A stretch of 24,000 bases of DNA from Candidatus Woesearchaeota archaeon (GCA_964360985.1 CAYHYK010000009.1:1-24000); one strand, 5' to 3'; positions 4,937-23,761 are shown, counted from the stretch's first letter. Translations and numbers: made by a program. Notes: generated from the sequence alone by a model not told the origin.

Positions 4937-4939
4937 AAA

Positions 4940-5231: not shown

Positions 5232-6344
5232 ATGGTAAAATCACTAGCAGGCATAGCTACACTACTTGGTACAATAATAGGTGCAGGAATTCTAGGAATA
5301 CCTTATGTAGTAATGAAATCAGGATTTTTATTAGGAGCTCTAAATATTCTAATTCTGGCAGTTATGATGGCTATTATCTGTTTGTGTATAGGAGAGATAA
5401 CATTAAGAACAAAATCAGACCATCAACTAACGGGTTACGCTGAAAAATATCTAGGCAAAAGAGGAAAAATATTAATGTTTATAATAGCCGCATTCGGTGT
5501 GATTTCAGCGCTTCTAGCCTACTTAGTTGGAGAAAGTGAATCGATATCCTATCTAATTTTTAATTCTTCAACTTACAAATTAGAAATGGGTTTGTTCTTT
5601 TGGGTTCTTTTATCAATCCTTTCACATAAAGGAATAAAAACTTTAAAATTAGGAGAAGAAATAGGATTAACTCTTGTTTTAATATTTCTAATTTCTATAG
5701 GAATATTCTCATTAAATAATATATCTACAGAAAACCTTATATATAATAATCCTAAAAATATATTCGCTCCATTTGGAGTTGTACTTTTCTCTCTTTTAAG
5801 TTTTTCAGCAATACCTGCATTAAAAAGAATTTTGGATAAAAACAAATCCTCTCTAAAAGGAAGCATAATCAAATCATATACATTTGTTACTATCATCTAT
5901 CTTCTATTTACTGCAATAGTTTTAGGGCTAAAAGGATCTAACACTCCTCAAATAGCAACGTTAGCATTAGGAAAACCTTTCATCTTACTAGGAATGTTAA
6001 CAATGTTTATGGCTTATCTTTCTCTATCAAATGCCCTTAGAGATGCATTTACTCTGGATTTTGGTTTATCTCTCAATAAAGCATGGTTTATTACTAGTAT
6101 TGTTCCTCTAGCATTGTTTATCTTTCTTCAAATAACCAACAATGCAAACTTCATTAGAATAATGGAAATAGGAGGAACTATTTGTGCAACTCTTGCAACT
6201 ATAATGATTTTCATTATATTCCACAAAGCAAAATATCTTGGAGATAGAAGACCAGAATATCAAATAAAATTACCAAAAATAATAATTTTCTTAATAGTAA
6301 CACTATTCATCATAGGAGCCATAGCCAACCTTATGACTATTTAG
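5232..6344 (+). CDS. Amino acid permease (Aa_trans / aromatic amino acid permease-like, multi-pass membrane protein)
   Basis: 370 aa with roughly 10-11 hydrophobic helices. The N-terminal signature IATLLGTIIGAGILGIPYVVMKSG is typical of the amino-acid/auxin-type and Trp/Tyr permease families. Confidence 0.7.
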   Translation: MVKSLAGIATLLGTIIGAGILGIPYVVMKSGFLLGALNILILAVMMAIICLCIGEITLRTKSDHQLTGYAEKYLGKRGKILMFIIAAFGVISALLAYLVGESESISYLIFNSSTYKLEMGLFFWVLLSILSHKGIKTLKLGEEIGLTLVLIFLISIGIFSLNNISTENLIYNNPKNIFAPFGVVLFSLLSFSAIPALKRILDKNKSSLKGSIIKSYTFVTIIYLLFTAIVLGLKGSNTPQIATLALGKPFILLGMLTMFMAYLSLSNALRDAFTLDFGLSLNKAWFITSIVPLALFIFLQITNNANFIRIMEIGGTICATLATIMIFIIFHKAKYLGDRRPEYQIKLPKIIIFLIVTLFIIGAIANLMTI

Positions 6345-8789: not shown

Positions 8790-9788
8790 TTAATTCCCAG
8801 CAAAACTCTTCGCAACTAATAAAGGAAACAAAATAGTTGCATCTCCAAAAACTTTAATACTCTTCGCATCCCCTTTTATCTTTCCCCAAGATATGGCTTC
8901 TTCAGGCATTGCTCCAGAATCACTCCCATCATATTCCATAGCCGTATTAATATAAACACTATAATCACATCCATTTCTCAACATATTAGCATTAAGTATA
9001 GAATGTTTAACAACTCCAGACCCCAATATTACTGCCCCACTCTTCTTCAATCCCACAGTAGTATTATTCAATCTCTTTACATCCTCTACTAAATCTATTT
9101 TAAAATCCTCATTATTCAAAGAGAAAAAATAAATATTATCTCCTAAAGCCCCATCTGTCAAAGCCGGACAATAAATTCTTATCTTATTTTTCCATGCCCA
9201 ATAACATATACTTTCTTTATTATTTATCTTCTCCCCCATTTTCCAAATCAAATCACTTCCACATATTATCTTCCCAGTTTTTTTCTGTTCTTCATATATC
9301 TCCTTCAATAATGGCTGTATAAATTTCTCAAATTCAACATATCTATTATTAGCAACAAAAATGTTTCCAATTCTATTTATTCCCTTTTTTCTTAACTCTT
9401 TTCCATCAGCCTTAAAGTCACCTAAAACAAAATTTCCTAAACATTTTATTATATCTTCTTCAATTCCACCGCATGTGGTAACAATAGTATTAACCTTCTT
9501 ATGTTCAACTAAATATCTAAATACCTCTCGTAATCCAGAACTAACCATATTTGAAGTATATCCTAGAAATATAAACGCCTTATCCTTAATCATAGAATTT
9601 GTAATTTCAATAGCCCTATGCAAGTGTGTAGCCATAAACCCTGTTTCTCCAAAACTATTAATTATTTTATCATAATCAACACCCTCGTTAAAGTCATATC
9701 CCTTTATAGCTATCCCTTTTACTTCCTCGCTTTTTCTAAGTAAATTCTTCCTAGCTATCTGCTCATTATCTTTACTACTTTCATCCAT
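8790..9788 (-). CDS. dys: Deoxyhypusine synthase
   Basis: 332 aa. Motifs: GYTSNMVSSGLREVFRYLVEHKKVNTIVTTCGGIEEDIIKC, and the catalytic-lysine region EEAISWGKIKGDAKSIKVFGDATILFPLLVAKSF, which closely parallels the eukaryotic DHS C-terminus. Confidence 0.9.
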   Translation of the reverse strand: MDESSKDNEQIARKNLLRKSEEVKGIAIKGYDFNEGVDYDKIINSFGETGFMATHLHRAIEITNSMIKDKAFIFLGYTSNMVSSGLREVFRYLVEHKKVNTIVTTCGGIEEDIIKCLGNFVLGDFKADGKELRKKGINRIGNIFVANNRYVEFEKFIQPLLKEIYEEQKKTGKIICGSDLIWKMGEKINNKESICYWAWKNKIRIYCPALTDGALGDNIYFFSLNNEDFKIDLVEDVKRLNNTTVGLKKSGAVILGSGVVKHSILNANMLRNGCDYSVYINTAMEYDGSDSGAMPEEAISWGKIKGDAKSIKVFGDATILFPLLVAKSFAGN

Positions 9789-9848
9789 AACAAAACCTCA
9801 TTTTATCAATATATAAATCTTTATTAATTAAATTTTTATGCAGTTAAA

Positions 9849-10124
9849 ATGGAATCAAAAGCACTTAACATTATACTTGGTTTAATAGGTGTAATCTCTT
9901 TTATATGGTCTTACTTCTCTGAAGAAAACAGAATTATAGCATTAATTATTGGATTTACTATTTTCATATTAATATTTTTATCAGAAAAGAATGATAAAAT
10001 AGATAGTATCCTATCAACACAGCAAAAATTAGAAGAAAAGCTTAAAATACATGAACAACTAATAGATATTAAAAGTGATGTCAATATATTGAAAAGACAA
10101 GCTAACAATGGCAAGAAAAAATGA
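9849..10124 (+). CDS. Small membrane protein with C-terminal coiled-coil-like tail (hypothetical)
   Basis: 91 aa with two N-terminal TM helices followed by a charged helical segment (QQKLEEKLKIHEQLIDIKSDVNILKRQ). Confidence 0.4.
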   Translation: MESKALNIILGLIGVISFIWSYFSEENRIIALIIGFTIFILIFLSEKNDKIDSILSTQQKLEEKLKIHEQLIDIKSDVNILKRQANNGKKK

Positions 10125-10214
10125 CTTTAGTAATACTTTAATTGATCTAATAAAGATAGCAGCCATATTGATATTGGGATTTATAGTTGTAAAAGGCCTT
10201 TTGCAAGCAATCAA

Positions 10215-11255
10215 TTAGCCCCCACCAAACCTTCTCTTTCTTCTTCCATATTCTTTTATGGCTTCATCTAGTTCTAAAACTCCAAACTCCGGAAAATAAA
10301 CTTTTGTAAAGTAAAGTTCAGCGTAAATACTCTGAAAGGGCATAAACCCACTTAATCTATATTCCCCGCTAGTTCTTATAATTAAATCTGGATCAGGCAT
10401 ACCAGAAGTATCCAAAAATTCTGTAAAATCATCTTCACTCATTTCTTTTCTCTTTGATTTTATAACTTTATTAACTGCTCTTACAATCTCATCCCTTCCC
10501 CCATAATCCAAACACAATAAGACATTAAACTCCATGTAATTACTAGTCTCCTTTTCCAGTTTATCCAACGATTTAATCAAATTTTTAGGCAATCTATCTT
10601 TCCTTCCAATATGTTTAAAGTTCATCTTGTTTTCCTTGGCAAATTTCATAAATCTCTCAACTCCCTTGAGCAACATATCAAAAATAGCCTTTCTTTCTTC
10701 ATCCTCTCTCTTCCAATTTTCTGTAGAAAATCCCCATATAGAAACATACTTTACTCCTAGATTTTTAGCTTCTTTAAGTAAAGATTCTATACTACTATAA
10801 CTTCCTGCTCTATAATGTCCAAACTGAGGTTGTAATCCTCGTAGTTTTGCCCATCTCCTATTTCCATCAGGAATTATAGCTACATGTTTTGGAATTTTAC
10901 TAAAATTCCGACTACTTTTAGCCCTAAATATTCCTTTAAACAATCTTGATATACTCTTTAGTTTATCAACAAAAAAATTACCCTCACGAACAATAACAAA
11001 TCTGGAAGAAACTTTTTCTATGTCTCTCCAATTAACTTCTAGGTTTTCAACCTTGGATAGTCCTGGACTCCCTTCAAGCCATTTTATCATATTATTAATA
11101 TCTTCTCTTTCACCCTGAACAACAATAAGTACTCCTCCATTAACAAGATTCATAGCACTACCTCTTAACGCACAATCATCAGCATATTTCTTTACCTCTT
11201 TCCTAAAATGTATTCCCTGTACTCTTCCTCTAACCTCTATTCTTGCTTCTTTCAT
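10215..11255 (-). CDS. uppS: Acylphosphatase-domain / cis-prenyltransferase (undecaprenyl-diphosphate synthase family) fusion protein
   Basis: Residues 1-90 carry an acylphosphatase signature (IEVRGRVQGIHFRKEV...GSAMNLVNGGVLIVVQGE). From about aa 120 the UPPS motifs appear: HVAIIPDGNRRWAKLRG, VSIWGFSTENWKR, IIRTSGEYRLSGFMPFQSIYAELYF, and a C-terminal RRKRRFGG. Its start overlaps the upstream DHH gene stop by 4 nt. Confidence 0.85.
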   Translation of the reverse strand: MKEARIEVRGRVQGIHFRKEVKKYADDCALRGSAMNLVNGGVLIVVQGEREDINNMIKWLEGSPGLSKVENLEVNWRDIEKVSSRFVIVREGNFFVDKLKSISRLFKGIFRAKSSRNFSKIPKHVAIIPDGNRRWAKLRGLQPQFGHYRAGSYSSIESLLKEAKNLGVKYVSIWGFSTENWKREDEERKAIFDMLLKGVERFMKFAKENKMNFKHIGRKDRLPKNLIKSLDKLEKETSNYMEFNVLLCLDYGGRDEIVRAVNKVIKSKRKEMSEDDFTEFLDTSGMPDPDLIIRTSGEYRLSGFMPFQSIYAELYFTKVYFPEFGVLELDEAIKEYGRRKRRFGGG

Positions 11256-12307
11256 TTTTTATTTGCCTCCATTATAAAACTCTCTTTAAATTTCTCAAAA
11301 TCAGAACTCTGTATTCTAGCCCCAACTGCATCTTCATGTCCTCCTCCAGTTGCATTCTCAAATTTATTCAATATCTTCTCCAAAATTTTCTTAACACCCT
11401 TTCCTCTTAAAGAAATATTTATATTGCTTCCTTTTTTATAAGCCACAGCAATATATTTTTCAGGATGTAAATAAGACAACTCATTAGAAATATCCGCACT
11501 TATACTTAAATCTCCTCCATAATCAAAAAATATAACATTCTCATAAACAGAATTCTTAGCAGTATTTAACAACTCATCATATTTCTTTCTTATTTCCCTA
11601 TATTTCTTTCTAAAATTATAATTTTCTTTAACTTCAATTAGAACATCTGAAGAGCCTTTGCATGAAATTAAAAAATTCTGTAAAAATATTACATTGCTTA
11701 TACTATCTTTCAATCCAAAATTAAAAGCTTGCGCAATCTTCCCTATTTCCGTTTTATAATAAGCATCAAACGGCTCCTTAACATTTCCCCACAACTCACT
11801 ATATTCTTTAGCAAATTCCTTGGCAAAATCAGGCATATAATGATCTGCAATACATCCTATAACTGCCAACCACAAATCTTCCTTCCTTCCAGTTAATCTA
11901 TAAGTCAAATAAGTAACTGGTTCTTCACTTTTATCTTTTCCAGTATTCTTAGTTGGATTATATACAAAAAAATCATTATATTTGCTATAATCCAAAGTCC
12001 CAACATCATGATGATCTATCCAGACTAAAGGCAAACCAAGTTCCATTACCTCTTCAACAAACTCTTTAGAAATAACTGGTTTATCCAAAACAAAAACATA
12101 ATCTGCATTTAACTCTCTAGCTTTTCTGGCATAATCTTTATTCAATTCAGGAAAACTTCTTACAGCTACTCCTTTTCCTCTCCCTAAATATCTTCGCAAA
12201 ATGAGAAAACTACACAATCCATCACAATCATTATCATAATAAAAAATAGGATTTTGTGCCCTTTCAAGATGTTCTTTCAGTTCGTTAATTTGTTCAATAG
12301 TAAACAT
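11252..12307 (-). CDS. RecJ-like DHH/DHHA1 family phosphoesterase
   Basis: 351 aa. Motif I YDNDCDGLCS is RecJ-like DxDxDG. Also present: VFVLD, motif III WIDHHD, and DHHA1 GGGHEDAVGA near the C-terminus. Confidence 0.75.
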   Translation of the reverse strand: MFTIEQINELKEHLERAQNPIFYYDNDCDGLCSFLILRRYLGRGKGVAVRSFPELNKDYARKARELNADYVFVLDKPVISKEFVEEVMELGLPLVWIDHHDVGTLDYSKYNDFFVYNPTKNTGKDKSEEPVTYLTYRLTGRKEDLWLAVIGCIADHYMPDFAKEFAKEYSELWGNVKEPFDAYYKTEIGKIAQAFNFGLKDSISNVIFLQNFLISCKGSSDVLIEVKENYNFRKKYREIRKKYDELLNTAKNSVYENVIFFDYGGDLSISADISNELSYLHPEKYIAVAYKKGSNINISLRGKGVKKILEKILNKFENATGGGHEDAVGARIQSSDFEKFKESFIMEANKK

Positions 12308-12371: not shown

Positions 12372-14771
12372 CTAGTAAAGAATTCCACCATAATAATTCT
12401 CTTCAAAAGGAAGTTCTATTTCAGAAATTTCCTTATTATCTACTAAACTATTAGCCTTTATCTTCGCAGGAGATAAAGTGTATAAATTATCCCCAATATA
12501 TAGACTTCTCTGCACCTGATATTTATAATCATAGAAGGGATTATTGTTAATTCCTCCAGGTAATGAATCAATCATCTCATTACTCCAAATATTTTCATAA
12601 TATCCATAATACGATCTAGTAGCTATATCTGAATCTTGCTCATATAATCCTACTCTATCCGTTTCCCATTTATCTTCAGCAACTTTAGTCCATATCTCTC
12701 CACTATGTCCCTCTCTCTTAGCTCCGATCGGTTCCTCAGAAGCAGACCCATATTTTTTAATATCATCAAAATGAGTTACTTGTCCTTTTACTTTAATTTC
12801 ATTTTCTTTTATATCAAAAATATAAGCTCCTTGCCATACAACTTCTCCATAAGCCCATTGAGGATTTTCACTATTATATTGATTTTCTTTTATCTTTGCT
12901 AAATTTATAGGCAATACCATTAAGTTTCTACTCTTATCGAATAAGAAAGCCTTATGATCATATAAAGCATTGCTATCAGTTCCTTTATCTCCAATAACTA
13001 TTTTAGCACTCTCCTTAGGATTTGCAACATCTCTAACATCAAATATTGCAATCTTCAATCCTTGAGGTGAAACAAAATCTCTTCCATTATTAGAAATCTC
13101 CACAGTTTCTTTTCCTATTCCTATAATATGATTTTCATCATAGGCATGTAAATAATCAGAATATCCCGGAATCTTCAAATATCCTAAAACTTTAGGTTCA
13201 TTCGCTTCAGACAAATCAATAACATAAAAAGGATCTATCTGTCTGAATGTAACTAAGTAAACTCTATCTTCAATAAATCTTGCAGAATAAATTCTCTCTC
13301 CTGGAGCTAAGTTTTCTATTTCTCCCACCAAGTTTAAGTTCTCATTCAACACATAAATGTTATTTTTACTATTTCCATTCCAAGACTCTCCAGAAGTAGT
13401 TGCTATTCTAAAATAACCTTCATTCTCATCCATAGAAAATTGATTTAGAACACTTCCCTTAACCTCTCCCTCTGTAATATATTCTATTTCTTCTTCATCA
13501 ACTCCAATTTTATGAATAACCGTCTTCTCTCTTTCCTCCCTTAATTCTTGAACAAATTCATTCATTCCATTATATAGCTTCTGATCAAAATCATCTTTAT
13601 CTCTTCCTTCCAAAGAACTAGAATAATCTGATACAATTTTATTTATCTCATTGCTTTTTTCAAAAAATGACTCATCGCTTGACAATATCCCTCTTATTTC
13701 ATTCCCTTCATTAGAAGGAACAATAGGCAGAACAACCTCTTTTATCATATCCTCAAAATAATCTCTCTGATCCAAAAACTTTGTATAAGTTAAATAGATA
13801 TTATCTTCAGAAACATATATATTATTACTTGATCCAGTAAGATAAACTTTATTATCAACTTCCCCATTATCAATATTCACCGCACTAATTGTATTAAAGG
13901 CATATTCATAATCCCAATAATCAAAATAATAAAGATCACTTATAGCCATTCTTTCTTCAACTCCATTTACTTTTAACATAGGCATTACAGGATCATTACC
14001 ATTCACATATTTAGAACCAATAACATAAACATAATCTCCAATCATTCTAGAATTAATATAATTTCCTTCAACACTTATTTCATCATCCAATTCAGGCCTA
14101 GCTCTATCGCTGATATCATAAATATAAGTATAAATTTTAGATTCTCCACCATAATAAGAAGGAGCTATCATACCTGTCGCTACGGCTTCAGATGCAATCT
14201 TAGCATTTTCAACACCTTCAACATTATGCACTACACTTCCTTCTACCCCCTGTCCAGAATTGATTGTCTCATAACCCTGAGCAAAAACTACAAGTTTATC
14301 CTCATTAACAAATATTCCCAATAAACTTTCATCTTTAAATTCAATTTCGCTTACAATTTTCATTCCCTCAGCAGGGAAAGCATTAACAATAACTACTTTA
14401 TTTCCAACAATATCATAAATATATTTTCCATCATTCTTCACAATATCTGCTTCATCTACTCCCTCTACCTGAATATTAGTTTTTGAATAATCTCCAGTCT
14501 TCGCTCCAGAACCTTCTGCAGTCACACTTGCTGAATCTTCCTGTGCAAATTGTCGATTAACAGCCGGCAAAACTCCATTTAATATTCCTGAATTTTCAGA
14601 TTGACTTTCTTCTAAGAATTCTTTCAGTTCAGAATAAGAACTAAAACTCTTTATTTTATCACTTGAAATTCTTTCATTAATATTCGAGTCAAACATAGAA
14701 ACTACTATCATTCCTAAAACAAACATCAATAATATTACAACAATACTTATGTTCTTAGTTTCATCTTTCAT
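12372..14771 (-). CDS. Secreted/anchored beta-propeller domain protein (COG4880 / PF09826-like)
   Basis: 799 aa with an N-terminal signal-anchor (ISIVVILLMFVLGMIVVSMF) and the hallmark motif YSKTNIQVEGVDEADIVKNDGKYIY. The remainder is long and rich in beta-strand-type sequence, with recurring blade-like segments. Confidence 0.7.
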   Translation of the reverse strand: MKDETKNISIVVILLMFVLGMIVVSMFDSNINERISSDKIKSFSSYSELKEFLEESQSENSGILNGVLPAVNRQFAQEDSASVTAEGSGAKTGDYSKTNIQVEGVDEADIVKNDGKYIYDIVGNKVVIVNAFPAEGMKIVSEIEFKDESLLGIFVNEDKLVVFAQGYETINSGQGVEGSVVHNVEGVENAKIASEAVATGMIAPSYYGGESKIYTYIYDISDRARPELDDEISVEGNYINSRMIGDYVYVIGSKYVNGNDPVMPMLKVNGVEERMAISDLYYFDYWDYEYAFNTISAVNIDNGEVDNKVYLTGSSNNIYVSEDNIYLTYTKFLDQRDYFEDMIKEVVLPIVPSNEGNEIRGILSSDESFFEKSNEINKIVSDYSSSLEGRDKDDFDQKLYNGMNEFVQELREEREKTVIHKIGVDEEEIEYITEGEVKGSVLNQFSMDENEGYFRIATTSGESWNGNSKNNIYVLNENLNLVGEIENLAPGERIYSARFIEDRVYLVTFRQIDPFYVIDLSEANEPKVLGYLKIPGYSDYLHAYDENHIIGIGKETVEISNNGRDFVSPQGLKIAIFDVRDVANPKESAKIVIGDKGTDSNALYDHKAFLFDKSRNLMVLPINLAKIKENQYNSENPQWAYGEVVWQGAYIFDIKENEIKVKGQVTHFDDIKKYGSASEEPIGAKREGHSGEIWTKVAEDKWETDRVGLYEQDSDIATRSYYGYYENIWSNEMIDSLPGGINNNPFYDYKYQVQRSLYIGDNLYTLSPAKIKANSLVDNKEISEIELPFEENYYGGILY

Positions 14772-14832: not shown

Positions 14833-15435
14833 TCATTTTCTTCTCCATAAATTTAACACCATAAATATCAACAATGCAGACAATGCTCCAGCTAAAAACC
14901 AAAGCCATACATTTTGAGCAATATTAATTATTTCAATAGTTGGAGTTCCAAAATTTTCAGAAACTTTGGCTAATTCAGATGCAATTCCTCCAACACCCTC
15001 ATCCATAACTTTCTGAGCTACCTGTAAATTCTGACTAGTATTTTCAGTTAATCCTCTAGAAACTCTATTATCCACAAAAATCTTTATTCCTAAAGCCAAA
15101 GCTCCTGTAATTAAAATAGTAGGAATAACTCCCCTTATAATATTTCTAGGAGAAATAATAATTTTCTTATTTGCAATCTTATATTTATGAATTCTTTTTC
15201 CTTTAACGCTCCACAAAAATACCTTAACTTTTTCTATTAATCCTGCCCCTTCCAATTTTTTAATATTGTATCCAACGGTATTCATAGGCGCCCCTATGCC
15301 TTTAGCAATTTCACTCTCACTTAATTCATTATCTGCCAAAAGAGTTAATATCTTCTTAGAAGTCTTGTTAGATATAACATCTGCAATCTTTTCCGTTCTA
15401 GGATCATTTAAATCGATCATAATTGAATTAGACAT
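14833..15435 (-). CDS. Membrane-anchored ArsR-family winged-helix transcriptional regulator
   Basis: 200 aa. wHTH region: ISNKTSKKILTLLADNELSESEIAKGIGAPMNTVGYNIKKLEGAGLIEK. Two TM helices follow (GVIPTILITGALALGIKIF and VWLWFLAGALSALLIFMVLNLW), bracketing a loop of about 50 aa. A TATA-like box at 15458-15467 lies 23 nt from the ATG. Confidence 0.75.
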   Translation of the reverse strand: MSNSIMIDLNDPRTEKIADVISNKTSKKILTLLADNELSESEIAKGIGAPMNTVGYNIKKLEGAGLIEKVKVFLWSVKGKRIHKYKIANKKIIISPRNIIRGVIPTILITGALALGIKIFVDNRVSRGLTENTSQNLQVAQKVMDEGVGGIASELAKVSENFGTPTIEIINIAQNVWLWFLAGALSALLIFMVLNLWRRK

Positions 15436-15499: not shown

Positions 15500-18259
15500 C
15501 TAAGCATAATCTCTAATAATATCTTTAATAGCCTCATCCACCTTAGGATCATTTAAAACATCCTCTACACCTAATGCTGCTCCGCCACCAACTCCAACAG
15601 GACTATAATCCTCGCAATCAAGTTCATCTAAAGTGCTATCAGTTCCTCTATCAGGATAAGGTTCTTTTATAATATTTCCTCCTGAAAATAAATAATTTAA
15701 GGTATAAATAGCATCTGACAAATCAATTTCTCCGTCATCATTTGCGTCAGCAGCATCTTTGCAATCAACTATTCCTGTACCAGTAAACAAGAAACTCAAA
15801 GTATTAACAGCATCAGAAATATCAACAGCTCCATCAATATTACTATCTCCTCTTAAGAAAGTTTTTTCTCTTTCATCGCACACATCTCCAGTTCCGTCAC
15901 CGTCACCATCTTCTTGCAACGGATTAAATATGAAAGGACAATTATCTATAGAATTACTAACTCCATCTCCATCACTATCTTCTTCCTTTACAGTCAATGT
16001 TAATATCTTCTCATCAGTCAAATAACCATCGCTAACTTCAAAAATAATTTTATATAGGCCAAAGTCTTGCATAGAAGGTGTAAAACTAAACTCTCCTGTT
16101 ATTGAATTAAACTCAAAATCCTTGCCTGCCAAAGATACATCTGCATCACTAGAATAAATTAAATTATCTTTATCTGGGTCACTTCCATTCAATTGCAAAG
16201 TTAGTTTCTCCCCTATGTCTATAGTTCTATCTTCTATAGATTCCATAACTGGAGCAATATTAGTTTCATCAGCAAACAAAGGGGCTACCAAGAATGGAGT
16301 ATAACTTACCCTTCCTAAATTGCCTGCATCGAAAAAGTCAACTATTCTATGAGTTATTCCTAGTTTATACTTGCTTCCCCACCAATTAGACAAAGCATCA
16401 ATATCTATATTTTGGTTATTCTTTAAAGCCGACTGGCTATTCCTAACTAAATCATTGTTTGTTATATCATTACCTCTACTCTCTAGTTCTAGCACAATTC
16501 CATTTAAATTATTTGTTATAGAGTTACCATTAATAAAACCTGAATTAAAATTCTTAACAAATAATCCAAAGTTATTATTATTAATTATATTATTATTAAT
16601 ATTATTACCCAAAGCAGGATTGACATTGCTACCCATAGCAGAAATTCCCTTGTCATAATCTTTAACATTGCAATTAGTTATTTCTACATTATCCTTTCCA
16701 CCTAAATTGGAAATTCCTATTCCTGCCTTATTACTACCTTGTAAGATTGCACCATTACAATCTAAAACAACATTATCATTCTCAATTTTAACTCCACTTG
16801 GAATATTATAACTAAACTTACAAAATTCTGTATTAGACTTTATGCTCATTCCATTTTCAGCCATATCACAACCCAAAAAACCAAATAATGCCTTTGCATC
16901 AACTCTAGCACTACTTATTCCGTTGCCGCTATCGATAACTTTAGGTGAATAAGTTTTAAGCATGTCCACTATCTCAGTCACACTTAAAGTTGAATCGTAT
17001 TGTTTGATCAATGCAATTATTCCTGCTACATGAGGCGCCGCTGCAGAAGTCCCGCTTCTTGTGGAGAAACCTCCACCTAAATCACTAGAAAGAATTCTTG
17101 AGCCAGGAGCAACAAAATCTAGTTCCATATAACTATTCGAAGAACAAACAACTTGGTCTGCACTAGTAGTGCTATCTGTGCATGTTCTTTTGCATTCCCC
17201 AGTTTGTAAATCACTTTCCACACAAAAAGTCCTTGAACCCACATCAGCGTCGTAAACTGAACCAACAGAAATAGCCTTTGGACTACAAGAAGGGTAACTA
17301 ATTCCATTCTTTGCGCCTCCATTTCCAGAAGCAGCTACAAAGGGCATTCCTAAATCATAAGCCCTATTTATTAAAACGTCCATCTCAGTCTGAGGACAAT
17401 TAGAACTCTCATATATAGAACTTCCAATACTCATAGTAATTATATCCGTTCCTAAATCAACTTGTTTCTCTAAACACCAATCAATACCTGCATTAATTGC
17501 TGAATCAAAACAATTTTCATTTGCATCACAAACTTTAGCTGCTAACAATTTAACATCAGGAGCAACACCTATAGAACCAGCTTCTAAACTAATAATTCCA
17601 GCAACATGAGTTCCATGACCACTTCCTTCATCCATAGGATCAGCGTCATTATTAGCAAAATCATATCCTCCAATAACCTTTGAACCTGTACCCATAAATC
17701 CTCCTAAATTAGGATGAGTGTAATCTATTCCTGTATCTACAACACAAATAACCTGTCCATTTCCAGCTAATCTCTTTCCCTCATGCACGACATTATGAGC
17801 ATCATCAGCATTTATAAGTGGAACACTTTCAGACATCAACGGCTTATACATCTTATCAGAATAAATTCTTTTGACATTGCTGTTAGAAGCCAACTTATTC
17901 AAGCCATTTTTATTAACTTTTCCTGAAAATCCAGGCACCATTTTATATTTATATTTCAGTTTAAAATCACTTCCAACCAGAGATAAAACTCCGTCCTCTT
18001 TTAATTTAATTTTATACTTATAATCATTAATTTTGCTTTTATCAAATCCGCTGTCATAAAGTTCAACAACTACAGAAGTATAACTTTCCTTAGTCAGCTT
18101 ATCAAAAACAAGAGATTCTACCTTGCTAGAATAAGATGAACTATAACTGTAAGAAGTACTAGGGCTGGGAGAAGGATAATAACTCTGAGCAGAAACAAAA
18201 ATTAAACCGTTAAATAATAAAAAAACAGCCAAAATCTTCTTAAAATTGCTTCCATCCAT
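15500..18259 (-). CDS. Secreted subtilisin-like serine protease (S8) with I9 propeptide, parallel beta-helix, Ig/cadherin-like, TSP3 and dockerin modules
   Basis: 919 aa with a signal peptide (KKILAVFLLFNGLIFVSAQS). Catalytic triad: D175 (VVDTGID, nt 17735-17737), H216 (HGTHVAG, 17612-17614), S405 (SGTSAAAPHVAG, 17045-17047). Beta-helix repeats span aa ~495-625. An Ig/cadherin-like domain spans aa ~668-758. TSP3-like DSDGDGVSNSIDNCPFIFNPLQEDGDGDGTGDVCD follows, then a dockerin pair at aa 801-868. Confidence 0.9.
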   Translation of the reverse strand: MDGSNFKKILAVFLLFNGLIFVSAQSYYPSPSPSTSYSYSSSYSSKVESLVFDKLTKESYTSVVVELYDSGFDKSKINDYKYKIKLKEDGVLSLVGSDFKLKYKYKMVPGFSGKVNKNGLNKLASNSNVKRIYSDKMYKPLMSESVPLINADDAHNVVHEGKRLAGNGQVICVVDTGIDYTHPNLGGFMGTGSKVIGGYDFANNDADPMDEGSGHGTHVAGIISLEAGSIGVAPDVKLLAAKVCDANENCFDSAINAGIDWCLEKQVDLGTDIITMSIGSSIYESSNCPQTEMDVLINRAYDLGMPFVAASGNGGAKNGISYPSCSPKAISVGSVYDADVGSRTFCVESDLQTGECKRTCTDSTTSADQVVCSSNSYMELDFVAPGSRILSSDLGGGFSTRSGTSAAAPHVAGIIALIKQYDSTLSVTEIVDMLKTYSPKVIDSGNGISSARVDAKALFGFLGCDMAENGMSIKSNTEFCKFSYNIPSGVKIENDNVVLDCNGAILQGSNKAGIGISNLGGKDNVEITNCNVKDYDKGISAMGSNVNPALGNNINNNIINNNNFGLFVKNFNSGFINGNSITNNLNGIVLELESRGNDITNNDLVRNSQSALKNNQNIDIDALSNWWGSKYKLGITHRIVDFFDAGNLGRVSYTPFLVAPLFADETNIAPVMESIEDRTIDIGEKLTLQLNGSDPDKDNLIYSSDADVSLAGKDFEFNSITGEFSFTPSMQDFGLYKIIFEVSDGYLTDEKILTLTVKEEDSDGDGVSNSIDNCPFIFNPLQEDGDGDGTGDVCDEREKTFLRGDSNIDGAVDISDAVNTLSFLFTGTGIVDCKDAADANDDGEIDLSDAIYTLNYLFSGGNIIKEPYPDRGTDSTLDELDCEDYSPVGVGGGAALGVEDVLNDPKVDEAIKDIIRDYA
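15656..15859 (-). other. Dockerin-type Ca-binding repeat pair (C-terminal module of the S8 protease)
   Basis: RGDSNIDGAVDISDAVNTLSFLF...VDCKDAADANDDGEIDLSDAIYTLNYLFSGG: two EF-hand-like loops each followed by a helix, as in dockerin type I. Confidence 0.7.
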
Positions 18260-18281
18260 ATAAAACCTACCTAATTAAGGT

Positions 18282-18293
18282 TTAAATATATTT
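18282..18293 (-). promoter_or_regulatory. TATA-like box (TTAAATATATTT) of the S8 protease gene
   Basis: The same 12-mer as at 22101-22112, with the same 22-nt spacer to the ATG (18259). No SD-like sequence lies in between. Confidence 0.4.
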
Positions 18294-18339
18294 GGTTATC
18301 TAAAATGTATTGAATAATTCCCAAAAAGAAACACAGTTT

Positions 18340-20427
18340 TTATTTAAGACTATAATTAGTAATCAGATCACATCTCCCTTCAATAATCGTCAACCCATTA
18401 CAACAACCAAGCATATTGACTGCATATGCTCCTTGAGGGGCGCACACAGATTGACAAGTATAATCTTCGGGAGAATCGCCCCAGCAATATCCACTACCAC
18501 ATTCAGTATTGCAATCACAAGATTCTGACTGACTGCACTCAAGTTCAGAATTACACTCTGTAGGATTATTTACACAAGATAAATCTGTTAAAGTCTCTTT
18601 GATACATATTCCATTTTCCAAAATCTTAGAACAGCAATTAAGAGGATTGTTTGTCCTTGCGCCTTCAGGAGCACAACCAGACTGACATACATAATCTCCT
18701 GAATTATCATTCCAGCAATATCCGCTAGCGCATTCACTATAACAATGGCATTTATCACCGCTCTTGCAGCTCAAACTAGAAGTGCAGAAAAAAGGATTAT
18801 TTTCACAGCTAGCAGGTAATCTTTGGCATTGCCCATCCTTACATTCAAATCCCTGACTGCACTGACTATTACTATTACAGTTAGCAATAGCAGCACAATA
18901 TCCATTTTTACATTCTAATCCAGAAGAACATTCTCCACTACATTGACAAATCTGCCCAATACCACAAGATAAAGAATCACAACTATTTTCATCATTATCT
19001 ACACAAGAAGAAATTCCAGAAGTTGCACAAGCTCCATCAATGCATTTACTCATATAACAACCCATTTCTGTTTCAGAAATATCTGAACCATCACAACTAT
19101 ACTCTACTAATATAGACTGATCCTTGCAATAATCTTCTTTTGAAAAGGCCAAGCCCCCGCTTCTCCCGGAAATAATCCCTTTCCTAGAAGCTATTTTTCC
19201 ACTATCGCTGTCAACACAAGAATCTTCTTCATTAAAAGGGGTAAAAACTTCGCATACATCTAAAGAAGAACATCTAAGTCCATTAGCACATTCTACATCA
19301 CAATCACATCTAGTTGCTCTACCACAATTATCATCCTCAAGTTCATTATTGCACACGTCAATAGGATTGTTACCACAGCTAATTTCTTTACTCGCCTCTT
19401 CTACACATTCTCCTCCAATACATCCATTTTCACAAACTTTATTTTCTTGCAAAACTTCTTTATTATCACAATAATATTCTATCAATGTATTCTCTAAACA
19501 ATAATCATCTTTTGTATCTATTTCTCCATCCTTCAAAAATGTAACACTTCCAACTCTAGAATATTCAATTCCTCCATCTATATCGAAACATTCGTCATCA
19601 ACAATTTCTCTTTTCTTTTCATTTACGCAAACACCTTCGCTACATCCATTTTCACAAATCTCGGCTTTTTCTGCAAGTTTCTCACCTTCACAATAATATT
19701 CTATAAGTTGCCCTCCCCTACATAAATCATCTCTAATAAACGGAGAGCCCTTATTATATCCAGTTACCCTTCCTTTAACTTCTACATCATTAACACTATC
19801 TATATCTTTACATGAGTTGCTCAAACTTTTACTCTCCTCTCTAAACAAGTATTTCTTAAACTCTGCTCTATCCTTAAAATCAACAGCTCCGTCATTATTA
19901 ACGTCCGCATTACTTTTACATTTTACATTTGATTTACCAAGTATAGCCTCAGTCACAGACGTATAATCTGACTCTTCTATTTTTCCATCTCCATTCACAT
20001 CTCCCACATAACTAGAACAATCTTTTTCTTCTAAGGAACCATCAATGTTGGACACTCTTTCATCAGATCTTTTTCCAATATCAGAACCAACATCTGGACT
20101 TAGTATATTTCCCTCCAAACCTCTATCAACTCCACTTCCCCTGGATAATAAATAGGTAGTTAATGCTCTTGAATCAAGGTTATCAATGATTCCATCAGAA
20201 TTAAAATCAGCATTACTAGTACATTCCAATTTATTTCCTTCCAAAAAATCCTTTATAGACTTAACATCATAACTATCAATGACACTATCTCCATTACTAT
20301 CTCCTTTAATAGATGAACAACTCTTAAAAAACAGAATTCCTCCGCCTATTCCTACCAAAACAAGCAATAAGATCACCGAAAAAGACAAAACACCAATATA
20401 TTTGCTCCCTATATCAACCTCATCCAT
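18340..20427 (-). CDS. Cysteine-rich modular surface protein with N-terminal anchor and two dockerin-type modules
   Basis: 695 aa with a TM anchor (IGVLSFSVILLLVLVGIGGGILFF). Dockerin pairs are at aa 42-94 and 142-195. The rest holds about 66 Cys arranged in two repeat families: module A x3 at aa 206-267, 280-341 and 404-467; module B at aa 351-392, 475-511, 517-534, 541-608 and 618-686. Confidence 0.75.
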   Translation of the reverse strand: MDEVDIGSKYIGVLSFSVILLLVLVGIGGGILFFKSCSSIKGDSNGDSVIDSYDVKSIKDFLEGNKLECTSNADFNSDGIIDNLDSRALTTYLLSRGSGVDRGLEGNILSPDVGSDIGKRSDERVSNIDGSLEEKDCSSYVGDVNGDGKIEESDYTSVTEAILGKSNVKCKSNADVNNDGAVDFKDRAEFKKYLFREESKSLSNSCKDIDSVNDVEVKGRVTGYNKGSPFIRDDLCRGGQLIEYYCEGEKLAEKAEICENGCSEGVCVNEKKREIVDDECFDIDGGIEYSRVGSVTFLKDGEIDTKDDYCLENTLIEYYCDNKEVLQENKVCENGCIGGECVEEASKEISCGNNPIDVCNNELEDDNCGRATRCDCDVECANGLRCSSLDVCEVFTPFNEEDSCVDSDSGKIASRKGIISGRSGGLAFSKEDYCKDQSILVEYSCDGSDISETEMGCYMSKCIDGACATSGISSCVDNDENSCDSLSCGIGQICQCSGECSSGLECKNGYCAAIANCNSNSQCSQGFECKDGQCQRLPASCENNPFFCTSSLSCKSGDKCHCYSECASGYCWNDNSGDYVCQSGCAPEGARTNNPLNCCSKILENGICIKETLTDLSCVNNPTECNSELECSQSESCDCNTECGSGYCWGDSPEDYTCQSVCAPQGAYAVNMLGCCNGLTIIEGRCDLITNYSLK
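19843..20004 (-). other. Dockerin-type repeat pair 2 of the Cys-rich protein
   Basis: GDVNGDGKIEESDYTSVTEAILGKSNVKCKSNADVNNDGAVDFKDRAEFKKYL. Confidence 0.65.
20146..20304 (-). other. Dockerin-type repeat pair 1 of the Cys-rich protein
   Basis: GDSNGDSVIDSYDVKSIKDFLEGNKLECTSNADFNSDGIIDNLDSRALTTYLL. Confidence 0.6.
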
Positions 20428-20448
20428 GTTCTAAAAAACAAAAAGCAA

Positions 20449-20460
20449 TTTATATATTTT
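20449..20460 (-). promoter_or_regulatory. TATA-like box (TTTATATATTTT) of the Cys-rich protein gene
   Basis: It lies in the 34-bp spacer between the M64-like stop (20462) and the ATG at 20427, with a 21-nt spacer to the ATG. Confidence 0.35.
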
Positions 20461-20461
20461 G

Positions 20462-22078
20462 CTAGCCAAAGGTTTTGCTAAACCATCCTGTAATTAACCC
20501 TGAAATTCTATCGAATACAGAATAACTTTCTGAATATGATATGGGACTTGTAGAAGATGATGCTGAGGCAGAAGAAGAAGCTGAAGCACTAGGTTTAACG
20601 CTAGAACTAGGAGAAGCAGTTGGAGCAATACTTGAACTAGGAGATATGCTAGGTCTAACACTAAAAGTTGAACTAGCTGAAGCACTAGGTTTAACGCTAG
20701 AACTAGGAGAAGCAGTTGGCGTAGCGAAATCATTCAAATAAACTTCTAGCCATTCTATATCCAAAGAATCTATTTTATCATCTCTATTCACATCCGCATT
20801 GTCAGCACAAATAAATAGAACTTCTTCATTCAAATAAAGATTAAGCCATGTCACATCCTTACTATCTATTTTGCCATCACTATTTACATCTCCTAAATTA
20901 TCATTGCATATCTCAACTGAACCTAAAGGAACTTTCTTTCCCTCTTCTCTAATTTCTATTTTTTTAGGATCTTCATTTCTAGAAACTTCAATTTTTGCAT
21001 AAAAAGGCTCAGGCTCTATGATAAATACTTCTCCTTCAAATTCATCAGTTTCAGGATCTATTCCATCACTATAAAGATATTCTTCTTGATTCTCGAAAGT
21101 TTCCCCACTCATATAAACTTGTTTTTCAAAATCAGGTAAATCAGTATAAATGTAATCTGGATTTATTTGATTAATATCAAAAAATTCTCCCTCATCATTT
21201 GAAAATCCTACTTCATAACCTCCTACACCGTTATCTCCAACACACCCTTCCTCTATTTTTGCATCAATCTTAAATCCTTCTTCATCTCTAACTCCCTCAA
21301 CCAAATAATATTCGCTGTCGTAGCAATCCTCTCTGACCTCAATTACATTTCCAGTTATCCCAACATTGCTTTGTTTTTCAATTTTATCCGCCACAACTTG
21401 TCTGTCAAATTTTCCATAATTATTTGTTCTTAATGTTCTCATAACACCGCTCTCGATAGACCGGCTATATTCTCCTTCAGAACATCCACTAAAACACCCT
21501 TCATTCATTCCATCAAACTCACCACAATCAAGAACGCAATTTCCTGCAGAATTACGAGGTATTTTAGCAGGTACATACTCCTCGGCCAAATTCACAAATG
21601 AATGTCCAAATTCATGAACAAAAACATTCTTGGAATGCTTATAATTCAAACTCATAACATTAACATAACTTGAACTTCTTATACTCTCTGACTCATCATC
21701 ATTTATCACAACAATATAATCATTTGGACAAGACCCTGATTTTTTTATCAAATCTCTATTATAACACAACAAAGCAATTCCCTTATATATTTCACATAAA
21801 GGATAATAATCGCCAATATAATAAAAATTAAATCTATCTGCATAGCTGTTAAAAGGATCTGTCTCTAAAAAATAATTCATATAATCTAAAGCAATTTCTT
21901 TTTTATTAGCAAAAAATACAATATCTATCCCGTTATTTGAAGTCTTTTTCAAAGTAGTGCATTTTGCCAATCCTGATTCTGATAATTTAAGGTCATCTTG
22001 AGAAACATAAAATAAAACTCCTCCTATTCCCAATAAAACAAATACTACTAAAACAATAAAATAAACAAACCTTGCCAT
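20462..22078 (-). CDS. M64-like zinc metallopeptidase with dockerin-type module and Pro/Ser-rich repeat linker
   Basis: 538 aa with an N-terminal anchor (FVYFIVLVVFVLLGIGGVLFYV). The motif VHEFGHSFVNLAEEY (nt 21575-21616) matches the HExxHxxxxLxDEY pattern I associate with the IgA-peptidase M64 family. A dockerin pair is at aa 394-449, a P/S/A-rich linker at aa 452-518, and a short tail FDRISGLITGWFSKTFG ends the protein. Confidence 0.7.
   Translation of the reverse strand: MARFVYFIVLVVFVLLGIGGVLFYVSQDDLKLSESGLAKCTTLKKTSNNGIDIVFFANKKEIALDYMNYFLETDPFNSYADRFNFYYIGDYYPLCEIYKGIALLCYNRDLIKKSGSCPNDYIVVINDDESESIRSSSYVNVMSLNYKHSKNVFVHEFGHSFVNLAEEYVPAKIPRNSAGNCVLDCGEFDGMNEGCFSGCSEGEYSRSIESGVMRTLRTNNYGKFDRQVVADKIEKQSNVGITGNVIEVREDCYDSEYYLVEGVRDEEGFKIDAKIEEGCVGDNGVGGYEVGFSNDEGEFFDINQINPDYIYTDLPDFEKQVYMSGETFENQEEYLYSDGIDPETDEFEGEVFIIEPEPFYAKIEVSRNEDPKKIEIREEGKKVPLGSVEICNDNLGDVNSDGKIDSKDVTWLNLYLNEEVLFICADNADVNRDDKIDSLDIEWLEVYLNDFATPTASPSSSVKPSASASSTFSVRPSISPSSSIAPTASPSSSVKPSASASSSASASSSTSPISYSESYSVFDRISGLITGWFSKTFG
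20579..20718 (-). repeat. Two perfect 44-bp direct repeats (20579-20622 and 20675-20718), 96-bp period, inside the Pro/Ser linker
   Basis: gctgaagcactaggtttaacgctagaactaggagaagcagttgg occurs twice and encodes PTASPSSSVKPSASA at aa 486-500 and 454-468. Confidence 0.9.
20732..20899 (-). other. Dockerin-type repeat pair of the M64-like protease
   Basis: GDVNSDGKIDSKDVTWLNLYLNEEVLFICADNADVNRDDKIDSLDIEWLEVYL. Confidence 0.65.
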
Positions 22079-22135: not shown

Positions 22136-23761
22136 ATGAGAAATTTAATATACCAAATGAATAAAAGATGTATTTTTTTAAGTTTATTTTTAATATTATC
22201 AATTTCTAATTCCTATGCACTAAATAATGCAGATTTCGCAATTTATACAGGATCAGGAACATGGGAACATAGTATTACTTCATTTGAAAAATTTTTAGAA
22301 TGGAAAAATCTTTCCTACGAAGAGATAAGCGCATGGAATTTAAACCATGAAAGTTTAATAGGTAAATACAATGCAATATTTTTCCCAGGCGGCTGGGCTT
22401 ACAATTACAAAAAATCAATACATGATTCTGGAAATCAAAACATAAGAGATTTTATATATTCAGGAGGCGCATATATAGGAATGAGTGCAGGCGCTTACTA
22501 TGCATGTGACAATGTCCGTTGGGATGGCCAAGATTATCCTTACTATCTAAATCTCTTCCATGGAGATTGCATAGGTCCAATCGAAGAAATAGCCTCCTGG
22601 CCAAATTATATCATGACAACAATATCAATAAATCCCTCTCACGAAGCAAATATTTATGAACCCTCAACAGAAGATGTTCTCTATTATGGAGAGCCTTATT
22701 TCATCCCATATCAAACTCAAGAAATGCAAACATTAGCATCATGGAATATTCCATCAAATCCTTCACTGGATAAAACTTCTGGAATCATCAGTTTTAATTA
22801 TGGCTCTGGCAGAGTTCTTTTGGTCGGCCCGCATCCAGAAATAGAAGAAGATTCTGATAGAGATGGTAACTCATTTGGTGAAGAACTAAATGACGAAGGT
22901 TCAGACTGGCCATTTCTTTGGACTGCAATAGATTGGCTTATGAAAAAACCAATCTCATTACCTCCAGAACTTCCTCAAGGAACTACACAAGCAAATAATG
23001 ATACCATTGCCCCAATAATCCATTCCTTCTCAGACTCTCCAGATCCTTTAACAGCAGGCACGTTACTAACAATAAAAGCAAATGTAACAGACAACATAGC
23101 AATTAGCTCTGTAAGAGTTAATATTTTAGATATCTTCTACCCAATGTCTCTAGAACAGGGTCCGCCAGCAGCAATTTTTTATGATAATTTCGAATCAGGT
23201 TCTCTAGCCGGCTGGACAAACACTGCAATTTCAGGTGGACAAAAATGGACAGCCTCAACAGTAAATCCATTCCAAGGTTCATGGCACGCCCAATCACAGC
23301 CTCGCTCAACTAACGAGCCAGCAAGCACTTTAGAAAGAACCGTCCCAACAACAAATTATCAAGGAATAACAATAAAATACGCCAGAAGACTAGTTGGTTT
23401 AGACGCAGCAGACGAATTCAAAGCAAAATGGTTCGATGGAGCAGCATGGAATACTTTAGAGCAAACAAGATCTAAATCAGCTAATGATGCTTCATATATA
23501 ACAAAATCCTTCTCTCTTCCCTCAAGCGCAAATAACAATCCTAACTTCAAAATAAAATTTGAATGCACAGCGGGCGCAGTATCAGAATACTGCAGAATAG
23601 ACAATATAAACATCTCTGCCTCAAGCTCTCCAACAGGCCTCTATATATATAAATTCAACACTGCAAACTTAACAAACGACACACACGCCTATACAATTTA
23701 TGCTGAAGACACTTCAGGAAATCAACCAGTCCCACAAGGCGGAGATTTCACAATTATTTAA
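22136..23761 (+). CDS. Secreted class-I glutamine-amidotransferase-like (BPL_N-like) protein with C-terminal Ig-like domain interrupted by a MAM/lectin-like jelly-roll domain
   Basis: 541 aa with a signal peptide (CIFLSLFLILSISNSYA). The GATase1/BPL_N-like core reads AIYTGSGTW...AIFFPGGWAYNY...IYSGGAYIGMSAGAYYAC...LLVGPHPEIEED. An Ig-like segment at aa 291-340 resumes at aa 497-541. The inserted domain at aa ~345-496 begins FYDNFESGSLAGWT and ends CRIDNINIS. An alternative start is the ATG at 22157 (MNKRC). Confidence 0.65.
   Translation: MRNLIYQMNKRCIFLSLFLILSISNSYALNNADFAIYTGSGTWEHSITSFEKFLEWKNLSYEEISAWNLNHESLIGKYNAIFFPGGWAYNYKKSIHDSGNQNIRDFIYSGGAYIGMSAGAYYACDNVRWDGQDYPYYLNLFHGDCIGPIEEIASWPNYIMTTISINPSHEANIYEPSTEDVLYYGEPYFIPYQTQEMQTLASWNIPSNPSLDKTSGIISFNYGSGRVLLVGPHPEIEEDSDRDGNSFGEELNDEGSDWPFLWTAIDWLMKKPISLPPELPQGTTQANNDTIAPIIHSFSDSPDPLTAGTLLTIKANVTDNIAISSVRVNILDIFYPMSLEQGPPAAIFYDNFESGSLAGWTNTAISGGQKWTASTVNPFQGSWHAQSQPRSTNEPASTLERTVPTTNYQGITIKYARRLVGLDAADEFKAKWFDGAAWNTLEQTRSKSANDASYITKSFSLPSSANNNPNFKIKFECTAGAVSEYCRIDNINISASSSPTGLYIYKFNTANLTNDTHAYTIYAEDTSGNQPVPQGGDFTII

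Follow-up and report, generated by a model that had tools for sequence, protein, structure and literature searches.

A central question raised by the 24,000-nucleotide stretch of DNA analyzed here (CAYHYK010000009.1:1-24000; hereafter the window) is what dockerins, the plug modules of cellulosomes, are doing in three adjacent minus-strand genes near which no cohesin is found. The three genes lie where the initial annotation had predicted them and encode an S8 subtilase, a cysteine (Cys)-rich modular surface protein and an M64-like zinc metalloprotease (Table 1). We propose that they form a conserved chromosomal cluster for a proteolytic and adhesive toolkit of the cell surface, in which the dockerins would be Ca2+-dependent, disulfide-braced plugs into an envelope receptor that is encoded elsewhere, and we give this reading an even chance.

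The modules were identified by loop pattern, family profile and fold. A six-frame scan of the window for the 12-residue Ca-binding loop motif found exactly eight loops, which form four pairs and occur in these three genes only, just as had been claimed at the outset. The paired loops are spaced by 31-33 residues and follow the pattern D.N.DG..D..D, which is the duplicated layout of type I dockerins. Three of the four modules score above the gathering threshold (22.9 bits) of the Pfam family Dockerin_1 (PF00404), with 65.9 bits over two stretches for the Cys-rich protein and 43.6 bits at amino acids (aa) 395-449 for the M64-like protein. The S8 module (aa 804-852) reaches 16.4 bits and, taken alone, fails the Pfam test. 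It is for this module that the fold comparison was made, while the other three were compared with solved dockerins by sequence: dockerin 2 of the Cys-rich protein matches the solved type I dockerins 4fl4, 1daq, 2mte and 1ohz at E-values (E) of 5e-6 to 4e-4, and the M64 dockerin profile matches dockerins of the PDB down to E 6e-9. The AlphaFold model of the S8 module, built from a 42-sequence alignment drawn from 46 database homologues, has a pLDDT of 87 and a helix after each loop (H20-31 and H53-65). When the PDB was searched with this model by Foldseek, the top 27 matches were all dockerins (target TM-scores of 0.51-0.83, mostly at least 0.7, with root-mean-square deviations of about 2 Å), and EF-hand proteins appeared only at E>7 with TM-scores below 0.2. 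Thus, the S8 module scores below the Pfam threshold, yet its model matches only solved dockerins.

The initial annotation had itself raised the possibility that these segments are merely generic EF-hand or TSP3 calcium loops. No EF-hand family of Pfam is found on the three proteins at E<=1, and the single TSP_3 match (31.3 bits, cut-off 25) lies at aa 759-781 of the S8 protein, where it adjoins the dockerin without overlapping it. Because there is no EF-hand score, the TSP_3 repeat is outside the dockerin and the fold matches that of dockerins, the modules are not generic loops of either kind but genuine dockerins by identity and fold.

These dockerins also carry extra cysteines. All four modules have a Cys five residues ahead of loop 2, and it does not vary among the orthologues, so that the shared Cys noticed in the initial annotation stands; the four modules do not, however, form a single class, as they show two Cys-pair patterns that correspond to two dockerin subtypes. 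In both modules of the Cys-rich protein and in that of the M64-like protein, a second invariant Cys precedes loop 1 by six residues, a pattern that we refer to as the N-staple; in the M64-like protein, both Cys are invariant in four orthologues. The S8 module follows another pattern, in which the partner of C833 is C882, about 45 residues downstream. These two residues (C39 and C88 of the segment) and R9 are invariant in the 42-sequence alignment, and DSSP assigns both Cys of the S8 model as isolated beta-bridge residues, which fits a C-terminal extension that folds back onto the inter-helix linker. With its FxRGD lead-in, its CxDAADxNDDG second loop and a Pro-rich extension that ends in a conserved Cys, the S8 module belongs to a widespread dockerin-like group referred to here as RGD-type. 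Its homologues at E<=1e-3 number 46, of which one is named 'dockerin type I repeat-containing protein [Planctomycetota]'.

Both patterns recur outside the cluster. Among the RGD-type modules, the Cys before loop 2 is found in 41 of 48 and the downstream Cys in 43 of 48. Among non-RGD dockerin-like modules outside this gene family, eight have both N-staple Cys, two only the first, four only the second and 62 neither (Fisher p=1e-6), the eight doubly Cys-bearing modules being derived from just four proteins. The N-staple pair is found in none of the 110 modules of ordinary PF00404 dockerins that were retrieved with the stapled-module profile, and the N-terminal Cys staple appears on this basis to be a new feature. 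Stapled modules also occur in a few environmental proteins (P0120, P0181, P0204, P0153 and P0079), and P0079 sits in a cluster with Woesearchaeota-labelled members. The number of Cys is even in each of the three proteins of the window (18, 66 and 12). From the conservation of the residues, the extra pair of each module most likely forms a disulfide brace.

All three proteins have a hydrophobic N-terminal segment in the hydropathy scan, as expected of exported proteins, and the anchors that had been attributed to two of the three carriers are found at aa 1-28 of the M64-like protein and aa 4-40 of the Cys-rich protein. The M64 segment shows by eye no small-residue cleavage motif and is probably an uncleaved signal-anchor, while the hydrophobic N-terminus of the Cys-rich protein is found in all its orthologues. 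The short N-terminal hydrophobic segment of the S8 protein, which ends in VSA-QS, is read as a putative cleavable signal peptide.

The three genes are syntenic in four related genomes, and the order M64-dockerin, Cys-rich-dockerin and S8-dockerin is kept in the window and in the orthologous loci L001/L002, L003/L006 and L010, which answers the question of synteny raised at the outset. In L003, the genes downstream of the block are also the same as in the window: those of a helix-turn-helix protein with transmembrane segments (HTH-TM), a beta-propeller protein, a DHH protein, an undecaprenyl-diphosphate-synthase-type prenyltransferase (UPPS) and deoxyhypusine synthase (DS). Since the block is collinear with housekeeping genes in L003, it is a core chromosomal cluster and not a mobile island. 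The earlier description of the block as an island was rejected for this reason, and its GC content differs only slightly from that of the surrounding DNA (0.33-0.35 compared to 0.29-0.32 elsewhere in the window). In L009, the most divergent relative, the upstream neighbor of the Cys-rich gene (560-1939) is not the M64-like gene but encodes an unrelated 459-aa protein with a stapled dockerin of its own (LCGDIPGDANNDG...WICKENSDVNSDG). A scan of metagenome contigs with the M64 alignment returned only an already known contig of 149 kb.

Within the Cys-rich protein, dockerin 1 is the most conserved region (0.63), followed by dockerin 2 (0.59), compared to 0.32 for the linker, and in the S8 protein, the dockerin matches the catalytic domain in conservation (0.75 vs. 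0.72). We count this constraint in favor of the proposed plugs. As the Cys-rich protein is at the same time the fastest-diverging protein of its neighborhood (Table 1), the combination of a fast-evolving ectodomain with conserved plugs would fit a surface protein with a fixed docking interface. The same observations bear on the explanation that the dockerins are orphans without any protein partner, kept as Ca2+-dependent structural, stabilizing or spacer elements, or for non-specific binding of glycans or an S-layer, in exoproteins of a Ca-bearing aquifer. Such orphans would account for the lack of a cohesin in any sequence examined, and dockerins without scaffoldins are described for many non-cellulolytic organisms (PMC9012536). 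The extra Cys brace and the TSP3 repeat next to the S8 dockerin would suit a role in stability, and two of the carriers are already anchored in the membrane. A spacer, however, would not need to be the best-conserved part of a fast-diverging protein, the clustering of dockerin genes, including that of the non-homologous neighbor in L009, suggests a shared partner, and the archaeal dockerins tested so far bind cohesins (cited in PMC9012536). We therefore consider orphan dockerins unlikely, although they retain a real chance.

If the dockerins are plugs, the next question is what they plug into. Cohesins (PF00963) were sought at E<=1 in the window's open reading frames (ORFs) of at least 80 aa, other than the DHH gene and six short overlapping ORFs (84-144 aa), and no match was found. 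Pfam searches also found none in the orthologous neighborhoods L001 and L003 of roughly 22 kb each, in the genes called on L010, or in the giant Ig-like neighbors of L001 and L003. The initial statement that no cohesin lies nearby thus holds for the scanned window ORFs, L001 and L003, and the defining partner of dockerins is missing from everything searched. Comparison of sequence profiles led us to reject the possibility of a cohesin hidden in the Cys-rich protein or in the neighboring BPL_N-like protein, because the profile of the CipA cohesin, whose sequence was verified against 1OHZ_A and 1ANU, aligned to both families with hhalign probabilities below 1% (0.1% for BPL_N). The cargo of the dockerins is two proteases (S8 and M64-like) and the Cys-rich protein, and no glycoside hydrolase (GH) or carbohydrate-binding module (CBM) family was found in it. 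A cohesin or scaffoldin of the kind seen in cellulosomes is accordingly not found in the window or the orthologous flanks, the searches having covered these loci.

One neighbor is worth considering as a partner. The secreted BPL_N-like protein is encoded by a gene divergent from and adjacent to the block in the window, in L001 (6009-7622) and in L003 (6620-8224). Its identity between genomes (83-86%) is like that of DS (86%) and far above that of the neighboring genes (32-61%), and it has no sequence relative in the PDB. Such constraint is unusual for an exported protein. By its sequence, the BPL_N-like protein is not cohesin-like, and we regard it as a candidate dockerin partner.

Based on these observations, we propose that the M64-like zinc metalloprotease may be held in the membrane by its N-terminal signal-anchor and that the disulfide-knotted Cys-rich protein may be anchored at its N-terminus, while the S8 subtilase would be secreted and its dockerin would keep the soluble enzyme at the envelope. 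The dockerins would also bring the two anchored proteins together in a single surface complex through a receptor, either a cohesin or a functional analogue, that would be encoded outside the 24 kb, and the complex may serve in harvesting extracellular or host protein. The active sites are intact, the S8 triad and the M64 HEFGH motif both being invariant. Several points weigh against this proposal: no PF00963 match was found in the window or in the orthologous flanks of about 44 kb; two of the carriers already sit in the membrane by an anchor and so would not need a dockerin to be retained; conservation of the M64 dockerin is only moderate (0.42); disulfide chemistry is uncertain in anoxic groundwater, and the disulfides are ones that we infer only; and the name of the lineage is based solely on distant named homologues, namely the Woesearchaeota and Nanoarchaeota labels on proteins with the type-A module described below.

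The receptor could instead lie within the cluster itself. The Cys-rich protein consists of an N-terminal transmembrane anchor, two dockerins directly after it, three six-Cys modules that we designate type-A, and several EGF-like Cys knots that we designate type-B. The type-A module spans roughly 62 aa with six Cys and the consensus C.D[ST]DGG...KG...D.C....L.EYYC...C..GC..G.C, and its third copy is the only one kept in all six orthologues. An AlphaFold model from a 44-sequence alignment is all beta with a pLDDT of 92; Foldseek searches with it returned no match in the PDB (best E 0.28, TM-score <0.25) and none in BFVD, and no family match was found in Pfam and NCBIfam. A profile searched against 1.84 billion representative proteins gave 4145 matches at E<=1e-3, and among the best 150 of these 4145, type-A modules are present in 125, with up to 11 copies per protein. 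When 86 type-A proteins were compared with Pfam, most were without any family, 13 had Dockerin_1 and eight had Kazal. Type-A modules and dockerins also occur together in several scaffoldin-like architectures, such as P0079 with 10 type-A modules and one dockerin and P0081 with one dockerin and 11 type-A modules. From its model and these searches, type-A looks like an undescribed domain family. The type-B motif (SC.NNP..C...L.C..G..C.C..EC.SG.C) occurs once more at aa 351-392, where it separates type-A modules 2 and 3, and the type-B region matches no Pfam family at E<=1.

The Cys-rich protein, which is laid out like a scaffoldin with its anchor, its repeats and dockerins of its own, could itself be a scaffold whose type-A or type-B modules act as cohesin analogues for the S8 and M64 dockerins, giving a cohesin-free, self-assembled surface 'proteolysome'. 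The combination of type-A modules and dockerins in the unrelated architectures of P0079 and P0081, the finding that stapled dockerins lie mainly in the sequence space of type-A proteins, and a type-A fold that is confidently modelled and has no match among solved structures are consistent with such a scaffold. However, 113 of the best 150 matches have type-A modules without any dockerin, the orthologue P0005 has lost two of the three type-A copies, and the co-occurrence of the two modules is biased, as the search profile held both. We consider self-assembly very unlikely, and we see just as small a chance for its boldest form, a proteolytic counterpart of the cellulosome in DPANN-type archaea, in which the type-A (or EGF-like) modules of the anchored Cys-rich protein would be a new receptor fold for the stapled dockerins of the two proteases, possibly for gripping and digesting a host surface.

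The homology searches with the Cys-rich protein bear on yet another explanation, in which this protein would be a multi-headed Kazal- or EGF-like inhibitor of the S8 and M64-like proteases, brought next to them by the dockerins. Kazal domains are found by Pfam in some of its distant homologues, and dockerin-bearing inhibitors (serpins and Dpi) are known from cellulosomes (PMC12484212). The Kazal domains of the homologues are, however, a separate N-terminal module (aa 25-104) outside the region aligned to the window protein, and no inhibitor resembles the type-A model in structure. The Kazal reading of the Cys-rich protein was rejected, as this protein has no match to PF00050 or PF07648 at E<=1 and the Kazal modules of the homologues fall outside the aligned region. 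For this last reason, a protease-inhibitor pair is disfavored, and we regard it as highly improbable.

The window is AT-rich (GC content of 0.29-0.35, about 0.31) and has the archaeal markers GatD, GatB/E, DS and an archaeal-type prolyl-tRNA synthetase; no tRNA was found in it. The window is taken from a contig of 25,264 bp. An A/T-rich, TATA-like element precedes the ATG of each of the three dockerin genes by at most 60 nucleotides. The DS gene of the window is also found on a contig of the European Nucleotide Archive labelled 'Hain_H51_01um', which we take to stand for Hainich groundwater and a 0.1-µm filter fraction. Of the proteins that carry related modules, the nearest with a name come from metagenome-assembled genomes of 'Candidatus Woesearchaeota' and 'Nanoarchaeota'. 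Judging from these sequence relationships, the organism is probably an ultra-small, AT-rich groundwater archaeon that is DPANN-like and related to Woesearchaeota. The GC skew ranges from -0.31 to -0.46 in each 2-kb bin of positions 1-22000 except 4001-6000; it follows the near-uniform minus-strand direction of the genes and weakens at the plus-strand genes (4-6 and 22-24 kb).

For a cell of this kind, the dockerins or the Cys-rich modules could bind the surface of a host whose envelope the proteases breach or harvest. The source resembles an ultra-small-cell fraction (as we interpret the sample label), the genome is rich in A and T and its gene set looks reduced, and the Cys-rich protein diverges fastest (32-41% identity, compared to 56-86% for its neighbors), which is typical of interaction surfaces under diversifying selection. 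Non-cellulosomal dockerins have also been proposed as adhesins in ultra-small Omnitrophota (PMC10066038) and as syntrophy factors in ANME archaea (PMC9012536). The parts of the Cys-rich protein that are conserved, however, are the dockerins rather than the distal modules that would face a host, no symbiosis marker is present in the window, and no link leads from these proteins to any host or partner organism. An attachment or attack apparatus is in our judgment quite unlikely, and docking to an envelope receptor, as proposed above, is preferred.

The two proteases of the proposed toolkit differ in how firmly they are assigned. The S8 protein consists of a putative signal peptide, an I9-like propeptide, the catalytic domain, a NosD-like beta-helix, a Big_9/cadherin-like domain, the TSP3 repeat, the RGD-type dockerin and a helical acidic tail. 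Its triad motifs D175-T-G, H215-G-T-H and S402-G-T-S405 are invariant in the orthologues, as in an S8 peptidase; Big_9 scores 26.1 bits, while Beta_helix (22.5 bits) and NosD (19.2 bits) are both under their own cut-offs. The tail is predicted to be helical with a pLDDT of about 90. The S8 orthologues of L001 (12675-15533) and L003 (12110-15010) have an extra Cys-rich insert, 'QTCGN..E.IEQCD', between TSP3 and dockerin, which the window protein does not have (compare window 15860-15880). In the M64-like protein, a probable N-terminal signal-anchor is followed by the catalytic region with HEFGH, the dockerin, a Pro/Ser-rich linker and an invariant C-terminal tail. Its match to Peptidase_M64 is marginal (28.4 bits vs. 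a cut-off of 26) and covers aa 88-171 and only positions 81-164 of the 302 in the profile; the zinc-site motif HEFGH is present and invariant in the orthologues, and the peptidases 4df9 and 3p1v of the PDB are matched weakly (E 0.016-0.076), so that 'M64-like' is the safe label. The M64 tail (FDRISGLITGWFSKxFG) is nearly invariant in the orthologue alignment, with a regional identity of 0.65 compared to 0.42 for the dockerin. By eye, neither the M64 tail (20465-20533) nor the S8 tail (15503-15589) resembles a C-terminal sorting signal for membrane anchoring.

Table 1. Features of the window and identity of the encoded proteins to their orthologues (positions in nucleotides of the window).
Feature	Position	Strand	Basis or remark	Identity to orthologues
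S8 subtilase gene, 919 aa	15500..18259	-	Peptidase_S8 147.1 bits	58-59%
S8 C-terminal tail, aa 891-919, GGGAALG then acidic amphipathic helix	15503..15589	-	Kept in three orthologues
S8 RGD-type dockerin with C-terminal extension, aa 801-890, pair C833/C882	15590..15859	-	Dockerin_1 16.4 bits, model, 46 homologues
S8 TSP3 Ca-binding repeat, aa 759-796, apart from dockerin	15872..15985	-	TSP_3 31.3 bits
Cys-rich modular surface protein gene, 695 aa, 66 Cys	18340..20427	-	Alignment of orthologues	32-41% (fastest-diverging gene of the neighborhood)
C-terminal EGF-like type-B Cys knots, aa 475-690	18358..19005	-	Cys columns conserved in orthologue alignment
Type-A module 3, aa 404-467	19027..19218	-	Orthologue alignment, architecture scan; regional identity 0.59
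Type-A modules 1 and 2, aa 206-267 and 280-341	19405..19812	-	Regular expression and hidden Markov model
Cys-rich dockerin 2, aa 137-198, pair C137/C170 invariant	19834..20019	-	Loops 19966-20001, 19870-19905; best Pfam stretch aa 142-194
Cys-rich dockerin 1, aa 37-97, pair C37/C69 invariant	20137..20319	-	Loops 20266-20301, 20173-20208
Cys-rich N-terminal transmembrane core, about aa 10-34 (scan flags aa 4-40)	20326..20400	-	Hydropathy 2.69
M64-like zinc metalloprotease gene, 538 aa	20462..22078	-	Peptidase_M64 and HEFGH	48-49%
M64 Pro/Ser-rich linker, then conserved C-terminal tail FDRISGLITGWFSKTFG	20465..20722	-	Orthologue alignment
M64 dockerin, aa 391-452, pair C391/C424	20723..20908	-	Dockerin_1 43.6 bits; loops 20855-20890, 20759-20794
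M64 N-terminal hydrophobic segment, aa 1-28	21995..22078	-	Hydropathy 2.91
Secreted BPL_N-like protein gene, 541 aa, C-terminal beta-rich domains (aa 285-541)	22136..23761	+	BPL_N 83.1 bits	83-86%
HTH-TM gene	14833..15435	-		61%
Beta-propeller gene (12372..14771)				56%
DHH gene	11252..12307			75%
UPPS gene	10215..11255	-		70%
DS gene				86%

Other genes associated with the cluster include the HTH-TM gene directly downstream of the S8 gene, whose product joins an ArsR/HTH_20 winged-helix domain to a C-terminal pair of transmembrane segments; the gene keeps its position in L003 (15073-15636), and the protein may regulate the surface cluster while tethered to the membrane. The UPPS gene encodes, as one fusion that is kept in L003, an acylphosphatase domain N-terminal to the prenyltransferase. 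In L001, PIN and HEPN/nucleotidyltransferase toxin-antitoxin-like pairs (15589-18380) replace the HTH and beta-propeller genes downstream of the block and mark a break point of synteny. The contexts of other dockerin proteins, a virus-like contig in the case of P0016 and a bacterial contig in that of P0019, are uninformative. On the contig ERZ27280358 k141_513365 (L007), which is virus-like with a fragment of a family-B DNA polymerase and many ORFans, a single protein (8928-11710) combines a Phage_TTP_14 tail-tube-like domain with Dockerin_1 and could be a case of viral use of dockerins.

Dockerins without cohesins are established in archaea and non-cellulolytic organisms (survey of Peer et al., 2009, FEMS Microbiol Lett, cited in PMC9012536 and PMC10066038), and those of Archaeoglobus fulgidus, ANME archaea and the giant ORFs of Omnitrophota are, like the ones described here, of PF00404 type, carried on cargo other than carbohydrate-active enzymes and often found without a scaffoldin; adhesion or complex formation has been proposed for them (PMC9012536 and PMC10066038). 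What sets the window apart from these cases is that its three dockerin genes lie in a DPANN-like genome as one block of conserved synteny and that their modules have an invariant extra Cys pair. Within a limited literature collection, we found no report on native disulfide-braced dockerins and none tying dockerins to Woesearchaeota, Pacearchaeota or Nanoarchaeota. An S8 subtilase with dockerins is also known from Clostridium thermocellum, where the double dockerin of Clo1313_0689 (PDB 8X39/8X3A) is proposed to anchor the protease to the cell-bound scaffoldin ScaD (PMC12484212). Its tandem dockerins match the window modules in sequence and fold. They plug into the cohesins of ScaD, whereas the tandem dockerins of the window are on the Cys-rich protein rather than on the protease, adjoin an N-terminal membrane anchor and have a Cys brace in place of the non-covalent clasp. 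The initial annotation was right that the cargo is not carbohydrate-active, but there are earlier examples of protease cargo, of dockerins in tandem and of archaeal dockerins without cohesins.

As a member of the RGD-type modules (FxRGDxNxDGxVDISDA...CxDAADANDDG...PxPxxGxDPTxDxLxC), the S8 module is 40-62% identical to 41 of them and shares their invariant Arg, both Ca loops and both Cys, and it differs from them in that its carrier is an archaeal subtilase and a conserved helical tail follows the module. The M64 dockerin profile also matches the NagH dockerin of Clostridium perfringens (PDB 2JNK/2OZN; 2jnk at E 2.7e-4). According to work of Adams and colleagues from 2008, the dockerin-cohesin pairs of C. 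perfringens toxins reportedly assemble secreted hydrolases in a non-cellulosomal manner. In that system, the cohesin (X82) modules that serve as partners have been identified and are encoded by the same genome as the dockerins, which lack a Cys brace and are carried by glycosidases. With cellulosomes, the cluster shares the family of plug modules and the tagging of several exoenzymes with a dockerin each, while no cohesin, scaffoldin, carbohydrate-active enzyme or CBM is found in the window or the orthologous flanks. What goes beyond these known systems is the N-staple variant of the dockerin, its clustering in a conserved block of a DPANN-like genome and the unannotated type-A module.

Little is known about the ways in which ultra-small DPANN archaea construct their surfaces and keep hold of their partners, and hardly any of them has been cultured. 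If a cohesin is encoded elsewhere in the genome, the cluster would be one more non-cellulosomal cohesin-dockerin set, which is useful but ordinary. The Cys-braced dockerins widen the range of the dockerin family and could serve as more robust docking tags, and the type-A module is a candidate for a new family of domains in surface proteins from these lineages. With one plug module common to its three exoproteins, the cluster provides an expressible bait for the receptor, be it on the cell's own envelope or on that of a host.

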